Origin: Octopus vulgaris
Lineage: Eukaryota
Reading direction: 5' to 3'
DNA: 64,000 nucleotides
Assembly (NCBI GenBank): GCA_951406725.2
Contig: OX597816.1
Coordinates: 181,660,001 to 181,724,000, forward strand
Position numbers and translations under genes: made by a program
Notes under the pieces: generated by a model
What the model was told of the DNA's origin: nothing
The model's input: only the letters and a program-made list of their open reading frames with translations
The model's database searches: none
Part shown: positions 2,750 to 3,932 of the stretch, one piece after another
How positions within the stretch are numbered: position 1 is the stretch's first letter
Layout of the letters: each line of letters begins with the position of its first letter

Positions 2750-3932
2750 TTTTCTGTCTCGAAATGGTGCTTATAATGTCTTATGATATTTTACGGTAAA
2801 AACCTTAATAGTTGAGTCAGTCGTCAAATATTTTAATAATAAGAGAGAAAACTCATTTCATGAGAAACCAAGCAAGGCAAAATGGGAGACTACACAGAGT
2901 TAGAAAGATTCATGCTTCAAGAGTTACCCTGTGCGTGCACTCGTGTATGCGTGTGTATGTGTGTGTGTGTAAATTTATACACACATATATACATACATAG
3001 GTACACGTAAACATTTATGCACACACACACACATTTCAATACGGAGCAAATATTTCACGAAAAAATAATTTTCAATGATACCATTGACTCTGCTATTATC
3101 TAGTATAACAATTTAAAAATGACAATAACAGAATCAATAATATAGGCGAATGCAGGCCCAAGAACAGCATTAAATAGCTGAAGGATTAAAATTAATCAAA
3201 GGACATACTTAGCATTTCCTTTGATTAATTATATATATATATATATATATATATATATATATATATATATATTGTGTGTGTGTGTGTGTGTGTGTGTGTG
3301 TGTGTGTGTGTGTGTGTGTGTATGTATGTATAATACAAATACTATATGTATATAGTGTACATATGCATATATATGTATATGTACACATACACACACACAC
3401 ACACACACACATATATTCATATATGGGTACAGGACATCATAAACCGTAAACAGCATGAAATACGAAAACAAAAGAGTTGACTACATAATCAGCAAGAGAA
3501 TCAAAGGGAAAACAGGACAAGTAACATAAAGAACGACCCTTCATCAGTTGTCGGCTGTCCATCTACTCCTCATTTCGAGCACTGAACGGCAATATGAGTT
3601 TTCGAAGGGCCGTTGCTCCTGGAAACCAAAATAAAATTTGGGATTTGGGTCGTTAGACCAAACAACGACCCTCCATGTTTGTTTCCCTTCGGTTTCCTTG
3701 TATGTCTCAACTCTCCTGTTTTTGTTACCAACTTTGACCTTTCCGTAACTCTTGAAGCATGAATCTTTCTAACTCTGTGTAGTCTCCCATTTTGCCTTGC
3801 TTGGTTTCTCATGAAATGAGTTTTCTCTCTTATTATTAAAATATTTGACGACTGACTCAACTATTAAGGTTTTTACCGTAAAATATCATAAGACATTATA
3901 AGCACCATTTCGAGACAGAGAAAAAAAAAGAC
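2750..3932. repeat. ~180-bp inverted repeat pair (2750-2927 / 3745-3932) around a short ribozyme-bearing element
   Basis: Arms are near-identical reverse complements; the ORF track shows the same MSQSSNILIIREK peptide on both strands. Confidence 0.9.
3536..3598 (-). ncRNA. Non-circularly permuted hammerhead-like ribozyme
   Basis: CUCA-UA-UUGCCG ... GCUC-GAAA-UGAG ... CGACAA-CUGAUGA-AGGGU; stem III 5 bp, stem I 5 of 6 bp, stem II weak. Confidence 0.6.

Follow-up and report, generated by a model that had tools for sequence, protein, structure and literature searches.

A damaged copy of a high-copy repeat in Octopus vulgaris carries a permuted hammerhead motif, whose intact copies are likely self-cleaving ribozymes with a new wiring and a predicted four-way junction at A9/G10.1, a reading to which we assign a probability of about 0.75. 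The motif lies on the minus strand at 3536-3598 of the 64,000-nt stretch analysed here (contig OX597816.1, positions 181,660,001 to 181,724,000; hereafter the window), in microsatellite-rich eukaryotic DNA with transposase and reverse-transcriptase remnants. In the proposed fold, the elements would follow one another in the order X, hairpin Z, Y, W, stem III 3′ strand, UH, stem I 3′ strand, Y′, GAAA, stem III 5′ strand, W′, stem I 5′ strand, CUGAnGA and X′. Y/Y′ would form stem II with the G10.1-C11.1 pair and W/W′ would tie stem II to stem I, giving in effect a circular permutation of the type-SGC ribozyme, in which the chain is opened at the A9/G10.1 step and X clamps the two ends. The helices and the conserved core are established by the comparisons below and the fold is well supported, while stacking of X on Z would keep A9 and G10.1 neighbours and leave the hammerhead core unchanged.

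A permuted motif with an intact core

The first-pass annotation described a permuted hammerhead-type motif with an intact core, and its letters and coordinates all proved correct on re-reading; the letters, the shuffled controls and the conservation within the family confirm the motif itself. GAAA occupies 3576-3573 and the CUGAnGA and UH elements are present (Table 1). Stems I and III adjoin the core: stem III has all five pairs (3594-3598 with 3573-3569), and stem I has five of six in the window copy, where C3589-A3551 is mismatched, and six of six with the family letter. G10.1-C11.1 lies next to G12 through Y/Y′, paired 5/5 in the window copy. A9 is not joined to stem II by two bases or fewer, as in a three-way junction, since X and Z intervene.

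The S-G-C block order was found with a descriptor covering all six block orders, and no match of equal strength occurred in 40 locally shuffled windows. With spacing borrowed from other loci, the real window gave 2 matches, compared to 1 in 600 shuffled windows. Rfam hammerhead models gave no hit at the gathering threshold across the window and none at E<=10 in 3400-3950, as expected from the permuted block order. Scanning very many windows does yield some descriptor matches, as that one match in 600 illustrates, but a chance arrangement in repeat-rich DNA is hardly credible here: the family letters repair pairs, Y, W and X were found afterwards at sites predicted from other loci, the window holds three such motifs, and chance is already refuted by the family letters, the counts in RLE-type tails and the alignment covariation.

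Table 1. Parts of the repeat copy at the main site and the two further motifs of the same block order (positions in the window)
Feature	Positions	Strand	Basis
3′-terminal copy of the very high-copy repeat bearing the motif, microsatellite-flanked	3425..3660	-	contig depth, peak 3497-3604
Upstream part of the same repeat, inverted in the window copy	3660..3740	+	contig joints, all four runs
Strand X, retained part	3647..3654	-	8/8 pairs with 3539-3532
Hairpin Z remnant, 5 pairs, stem base lost in the window copy	3619..3646	-	family form by eye from contig loose ends
Strand Y, the 5′ side of the true stem II; G10.1 = G3618	3614..3618	-	5/5 Watson-Crick pairs with 3577-3581
Strand W, partner of 3555-3560 (stem I-II helix)	3607..3612	-	4/6 pairs in the window copy
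Stem III 3′ strand, U16.1 (3594), A17 (3593)	3593..3598	-	pairing
Stem I 3′ strand	3587..3592	-	family letter U at C3589 (97-98% of depth)
Strand Y′, 3′ strand of stem II; C3577 = C11.1	3577..3581	-	pairing
GAAA (G12-A15.1) and stem III 5′ strand	3569..3576	-	letters, pairing
Strand W′	3555..3560	-	sequence; 3560 differs in 89-93% of family
Stem I 5′ strand (3553-3548) and CUGAUGA (3547-3541)	3541..3553	-	letters, pairing
Strand X′, directly after A9	3532..3540	-	pairing; X/X′ z=14.2 in related folds
Second S-G-C motif, other sequence, U16.1 changed to C	22145..22240	+	follows a broken RLE-type ORF (20700-21865) by about 320 nt
Third motif, other sequence, intact core	43020..43135	-	stem I 6/6, stem III 7/7, Y 6/6, W 7 pairs

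Structural relatives in RLE-type retrotransposon tails

Loci sharing the domain of the broken ORF that precedes the second motif were gathered from metagenome contigs (the best 80 of 276 confirmed loci), and those 68 with at least 150 nt after the domain match made up the tail set; they are related to the window repeat in structure, not in sequence. Within 400 nt, 42 of the 68 tails carry the motif with stems I and III, all in the S-G-C order, and 26 have no passing motif. The controls gave 0 on the antisense strand, 0 in coding sequence, 3 in the next 400 nt and 0 in ten motif-fixed shuffles. Six loci found with a general pattern in viral contigs had neither the helices nor an RLE match and were taken for chance matches.

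A lower threshold yielded 44 full-length motifs (two short ones were dropped), which reduced to 32 at 85% identity. In these motifs, the strand right after CUGAnGA forms a strong helix with sequence that lies 40-60 nt upstream (z=-14.8). When each helix was anchored and compared with permuted partners, the 32 motifs gave z=14.2 for X/X′, z=9.0 for W/W′ and z=7.7 for Y/Y′, compared to z=2.2 for the direct stem II between blocks C and G. The X, W and Y helices were never used in selecting the motifs; stems I and III were, and their covariation is therefore partly by construction. The X/X′ pairing starts immediately after A9; Y pairs up to the base that precedes GAAA, its first pair being G-C in 28 of the 32 motifs (23/30 on the alignment); and hairpin Z, of 7-10 pairs, fills the gap from X to Y, in many motifs without an unpaired base.

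On an unedited MAFFT alignment, with a single structure read off one row, 82.8% of 915 cells pair and 30 of 31 pairs show two-sided change, compared to 37-45% pairing in slid controls. X and Y alone reach 80.2%, with two-sided change in 13/13 pairs, and W/W′ reaches 82%, with two-sided change in all five. A search that left out the core and used helices I, III, Y and X only (threshold 19 of 21) gave 37 hits in the 68 loci, 29 of them exactly on CUGAnGA/GAAA/UH with H never G. Among the remaining hits, one had G12 changed, four were shifted by one base at the same site and three lay elsewhere; the antisense strands gave hits in 5/68, none with the core.

These comparisons speak against the first-pass assignment of stem II to GCUC/GGGU, which, together with an upstream helix acting as an off-switch, would make the motif an ordinary type-SGC ribozyme. 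Four direct pairs are indeed possible in the window copy (two of them G-U), the competing helix has a probability of 0.8-1.0 in nested folds of that copy, some registers retain a weak direct signal (p=0.002), and the direct pairing of 54.7% on the alignment was reached in 0/500 shuffles. On the same alignment, however, Y/Y′ is 88.2% paired, the duplex energy of the direct stem II is no better than that of permuted partners (p=0.21), and G10.1-C11.1 forms directly in only 17/34 cases, compared to the 28/32 through Y. The direct pairing is thus not conserved in the related folds, where each of the two strands has its own upstream partner. Common family letters, moreover, make the competing helix weaker, at -16.8 or -11.8 kcal/mol as opposed to -21.9 kcal/mol (substitutions only), and we regard the ordinary type-SGC ribozyme as quite improbable. 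Across the RLE motifs, a helix between the G-to-C linker and the post-core strand, as in HRIMA-1, found no support (p=0.88 and p=0.58), and pairing of the post-core strand with the nearby upstream flank (-30 to -7), at the position of the competing helix, is not conserved (p=0.47).

The rewired fold could also be real and yet no longer cut, serving instead as a hammerhead-derived docking structure for the reverse transcriptase of the element. Docking sites for reverse transcriptases near the 3′ end are established for non-LTR elements; the motif lies within about 70-190 nt of the point where related copies stop aligning, that is, where such sites are expected, and the copies retain an uncut motif. 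Nevertheless, all 13 core positions, G10.1-C11.1, a free N7 and an H17 that is not G are kept across very different stems, which is the pattern that catalysis needs; the helices said to conflict with a ribozyme in fact rebuild stem II; and unrelated reverse transcriptases (RLE-type and Naiad) bear the same fold. Docking without cleavage is therefore unlikely, although it is the most probable of the rival explanations, and a self-cleaving hammerhead remains our preferred reading of the intact copies.

In nine of the loci (L022, L023, L026, L038, L043, L047, L053, L062 and L076), the core is followed at 60-200 nt by a common series of small hairpin-like repeats, possibly the 5′ end of a next tandem element. 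One contig carries both L019 and L026 as separate elements, and the open frame of the element that follows L026 starts about 100 nt after the core.

The repeat family and the decay of the window copy

Words of 3430-3940 are present in runs under five organism labels (24 runs listed), and the family was sampled as the contigs of four runs, one per organism label, at a likeness of at least 80%. The matched contigs numbered 6,792, 3,682, 5,055 and 7,158 per run; their summed depth, which should not be read as a copy number, has its maxima at 3497-3604 and 3660-3748, and beyond 3750 it falls to that of a single contig. The drop in depth between 3589 and 3600 may reflect truncation at the cut site or merely mismatches to the window copy. 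Behind 3558, loose ends reveal a subset of contigs with the same block C and another GAAA block (agreement only 0.53-0.59), which suggests further subfamilies with other stem III sequences.

The first-pass annotation had proposed checking whether other copies repair the C-A mismatch in stem I, and they do: 3589 differs from the window copy in 97-98% of family depth, which restores stem I to 6/6. Other family differences lie at 3560, where W/W′ pairing is improved (as it is at 3611, which differs in 89-94%), at 3582 (89-92%), 3584 (46-50%), 3600 (77-82%), 3607 (40-51%) and 3604 (27-35%). Minor variants at 3552, 3553 and 3587 (5-21%) look like CpG decay. Among the 40 of 87 variant rows that were listed for the family letters, no variant falls in CUGAUGA, GAAA, UA, stem III, 3577-3581 or 3614-3618.

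In all four runs, contigs join 3646/3647 to 3737-3739 on opposite strands, which implies that 3660-3740 is inverted in the window copy relative to other copies, which have it on the motif strand and connected to 3647. This segment contains two short direct repeats (3667 and 3736), each able to serve as strand X. The rearranged junction of the window copy is spanned by single contigs in two other runs and is hence no assembly artefact. By eye, the loose ends of the family show X, a Z of at least 8 pairs, Y and a 6-pair W in direct succession; for these family forms of X, Z, Y and W the basis is letter frequencies together with consensi of the loose ends (agreement 0.71-0.82), as opposed to aligned whole copies. 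The window copy looks as if the sequence between two short direct repeats had been deleted and placed alongside in inverted orientation, a deletion that took away the base of Z.

The upstream segment 3604-3618, which includes the strand that the first-pass annotation read as either an off-switch or an alternative stem II (3604-3614), is part of the fold and no accessory, being made up of strands W and Y. In the window copy, 3604-3614 forms 11 pairs with 3542-3532, with four more between 3616-3619 and 3531-3528, so that X′, G8 and A9 are bound by the altered W region and Y is captured as well, in a competing helix of 15 pairs (-21.9 kcal/mol). As first noted from the sequence, this helix is a real feature of the window copy and dominates its nested fold; it needs letters that most family copies lack, given the differences at 3611 and 3607, and is likely a product of decay. 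Nested folding cannot represent pseudoknots and left stems I and III at near-zero probability in all constructs, and was used only to rank X and Y against the competing helix. With the base of Z deleted, W and stem I damaged, and the 15-pair helix predicted to sequester G8, A9 and Y, the window copy is probably inactive. The transcript span 3525-3600, put forward earlier for a cleavage assay, lacks G10.1 (G3618).

The alternative stem II suggested for the same upstream helix would, if combined with the GAAA at 3603-3600, yield a type II (GSC) or minimal Penelope-type hammerhead. GAAA does follow 3604-3614 directly in the window copy, but most of the family differs at 3600, stem III would have only one pair, and the helix would use up G8 and A9; this largely refuted arrangement is very improbable.

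The repeat is likely Penelope-like, an assignment drawn from its arrangement and flanks. Inverted 5′ pieces and (TA)n-type flanks are described as hallmarks of Penelope-like elements in the sections of PMC8557442 considered here, and the window copy has an inverted 5′-truncated piece and the microsatellite flanks (TA)n, (TG)n and (AC)n. No ORF for a Penelope-like reverse transcriptase or a GIY-YIG nuclease was found in the repeat fragment of the window. The repeat is present as a single copy at the site, with no tandem unit of the kind seen in non-LTR retrozymes, and its own patterns had no match in the viral and genome contig collections searched.

Another fragment of the pyrimidine-rich upstream part of the repeat lies at 18490-18745 (+), ends just past the far X repeat and is fused to an inverted piece of another repeat. 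An inverted duplicate of 98% identity (2742-2927, +, and 3745-3933, -) brackets the repeat copy and its microsatellites, and has single-contig depth in the four runs.

Further motifs and elements in the window

Three sequences in the window that are unrelated to one another have the S-G-C order, Y and W in common (Table 1). The S-G-C motif proper lies at 22185-22240 in the second sequence and at 43087-43041 in the third. The broken ORF ahead of the second motif has a C-terminal profile match to R2 retrotransposon proteins (E 1.8e-8), and we take its clade to be HERO. About 30 letters of this motif resemble, by eye, a Naiad consensus motif in part 12 of File S5 of PMC8557442, which hints at tail exchange or tight structural constraint. 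Upstream of it, in the RLE tail, 22030-22070 (+) has a TATA-like word with initiator-like words about 25 nt later, which could drive a downstream tandem copy. In the third motif, X is weak and Z is not evident, and the motif belongs to a 380-nt fragment ending in (TA)n. It is the best local candidate for an assay, and a palindrome downstream of it (about 42995-42980) resembles the family form of 3597-3610.

Ordinary type I Penelope-style words (CUGAnGA, hairpin, GAAA) were recognized by eye in other repeats at 40565-40610 (+), 4295-4335 (-) and 4780-4835. The window also contains a 740-nt inverted duplicate (36475-37214 and 37300-38040, 98.6% identical, with a CUGAAGA word in each arm), a Mariner-type transposase remnant at 17300-18480 (-), and two reverse-transcriptase ORFs at 52053-52982 (+) and 57679-59097 (-).

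Relation to known hammerheads and to Naiads

The closest known system is the type-SGC hammerhead (HRIMA-1 and variants; Eckert, Friedrich, Weinberg and Weinberg 2023, PMC10085705), which, in the portions of that paper considered here, has the same S-G-C order and full core. In both, stems I and II are connected by a short linker (5 nt in the window motif) and also tied by a distal helix, which retains 4/6 pairs in the window copy. In type-SGC, however, CUGAnGA leads straight into stem II, whereas in the window fold X and Z separate A9 from G10.1, and stem II takes its 5′ strand from upstream of the cut; a stem II between blocks C and G is not conserved in the related folds (z=2.2, as above). 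In addition, the type-SGC examples given there come from metatranscriptomes, with none from genomes of known organisms, whereas the window motif is genomic and occurs in retroelement tails. The term 'type-SGC' occurs in one paper of the literature searched.

The type I hammerheads of Penelope-like pseudo-LTRs and non-LTR retrozymes, as far as covered by File S2 of PMC8557442 and the text consulted of bioRxiv 10.64898/2026.07.22.740005, have the same core, lie near the 3′ end and are flanked by microsatellites. They are pseudoknot-free C-G-S hairpin junctions, unlike the window fold, which has the S-G-C order and three more helices and occurs also in RLE-type non-LTR elements. In the same consulted text, the preprint names hammerhead types I-III only. 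Core insertions are also found among the natural core variants of Perreault et al. 2011 (PMC3088659, excerpts), where they consist of one or two bases (A6a, U13a, 2a/2b), whereas those of the window fold are helices at A9/G10.1. In the open literature searched, no description of S-G-C motifs in retrotransposons or of a layout opened at A9/G10.1 was found.

Naiads are reported, in the sections of PMC8557442 considered, to be without canonical hammerheads, some of them containing core words that fit no descriptor. These 'HHR_core' and 'HHR_half_core' entries (Methods and File S1) are core words off the descriptor, whose other half lies at a distance of 35-50 nt to one side or the other; those sections assign them no structure, and several such consensi fit the window fold by eye. 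Our reading of File S5, made by eye, covered 60 of 62 CTGATGA places, the first five places for each of another six core terms, the ends of six records and part 25; it is not a count over all 54 consensi, and line breaks hide some matches. Within this coverage, S-G-C order, paired stems I and III and X-Z-Y-W were recognized in Naiad_Amil (with Aacu and Anas), Naiad_Obim/Ovul and Naiad-2_Movir, and the same fold in the record before Naiad_Ppla (Naiad-4_Dst by file order) and in one after the Naiad_Plae header; Naiad_Esco fits less well. In the supplement of PMC8557442, three short terms from the window repeat's own sequence gave 0 matches.

In the same covered parts of File S5, nematode Naiads (Nbra, Hpol and a Pristionchus record) have, by eye, the order C-S-G with perfect stems I, II and III, a direct stem II and a long extra helix. 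Type CSG is known from two sequences.

Implications for cleavage and for the elements

The fold would be complete only once X′ has been transcribed, and the cut would come after UH, by analogy with known hammerheads at a predicted position between 3593 and 3592 in the window copy. The predicted helices hold the cut products by a median of 26 pairs (18-33), and products that stay paired in this way would give a held nick and might process tandem or read-through transcripts at the element tail. The start of the next open frame shortly after the core of L026 fits such processing. Genomic copies keep the whole motif, which implies that the cut RNA is not the usual template or that it is repaired. 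For a Penelope-like element hammerhead, the part of PMC11167929 considered here describes cutting only together with protein, and dispensability for insertion in vitro. The consulted text of PMC10085705 states that in no known hammerhead do more than one or two bases separate CUGAnGA from its stems, and catalysis across an X/Z insertion is thus a prediction only.

On balance, and judging from sequence comparison, we favour the broader view that this is an active seventh hammerhead wiring, opened at A9/G10.1 into a four-way junction, which would serve RLE-type non-LTR retrotransposons as their standard tail ribozyme, and likewise many Naiads and repeats that animal genomes carry in thousands of copies, where it would nick the RNA and hold the halves together, and which would explain the seeming lack of hammerheads in Naiads. 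The six-permutation scheme of 2023 assumes that CUGAnGA is inseparable from stem II, and the fold described here parts them while keeping the catalytic bases and G10.1-C11.1. Hammerhead layouts would then be incompletely listed, and a large genomic class would have escaped descriptor searches. With it, non-circular hammerheads would move from rare environmental RNAs into animal genomes, a candidate ribozyme would be placed in the 3′ tail of RLE-type retrotransposons, and a testable answer would be at hand to the question of why Naiads 'lack' hammerheads.
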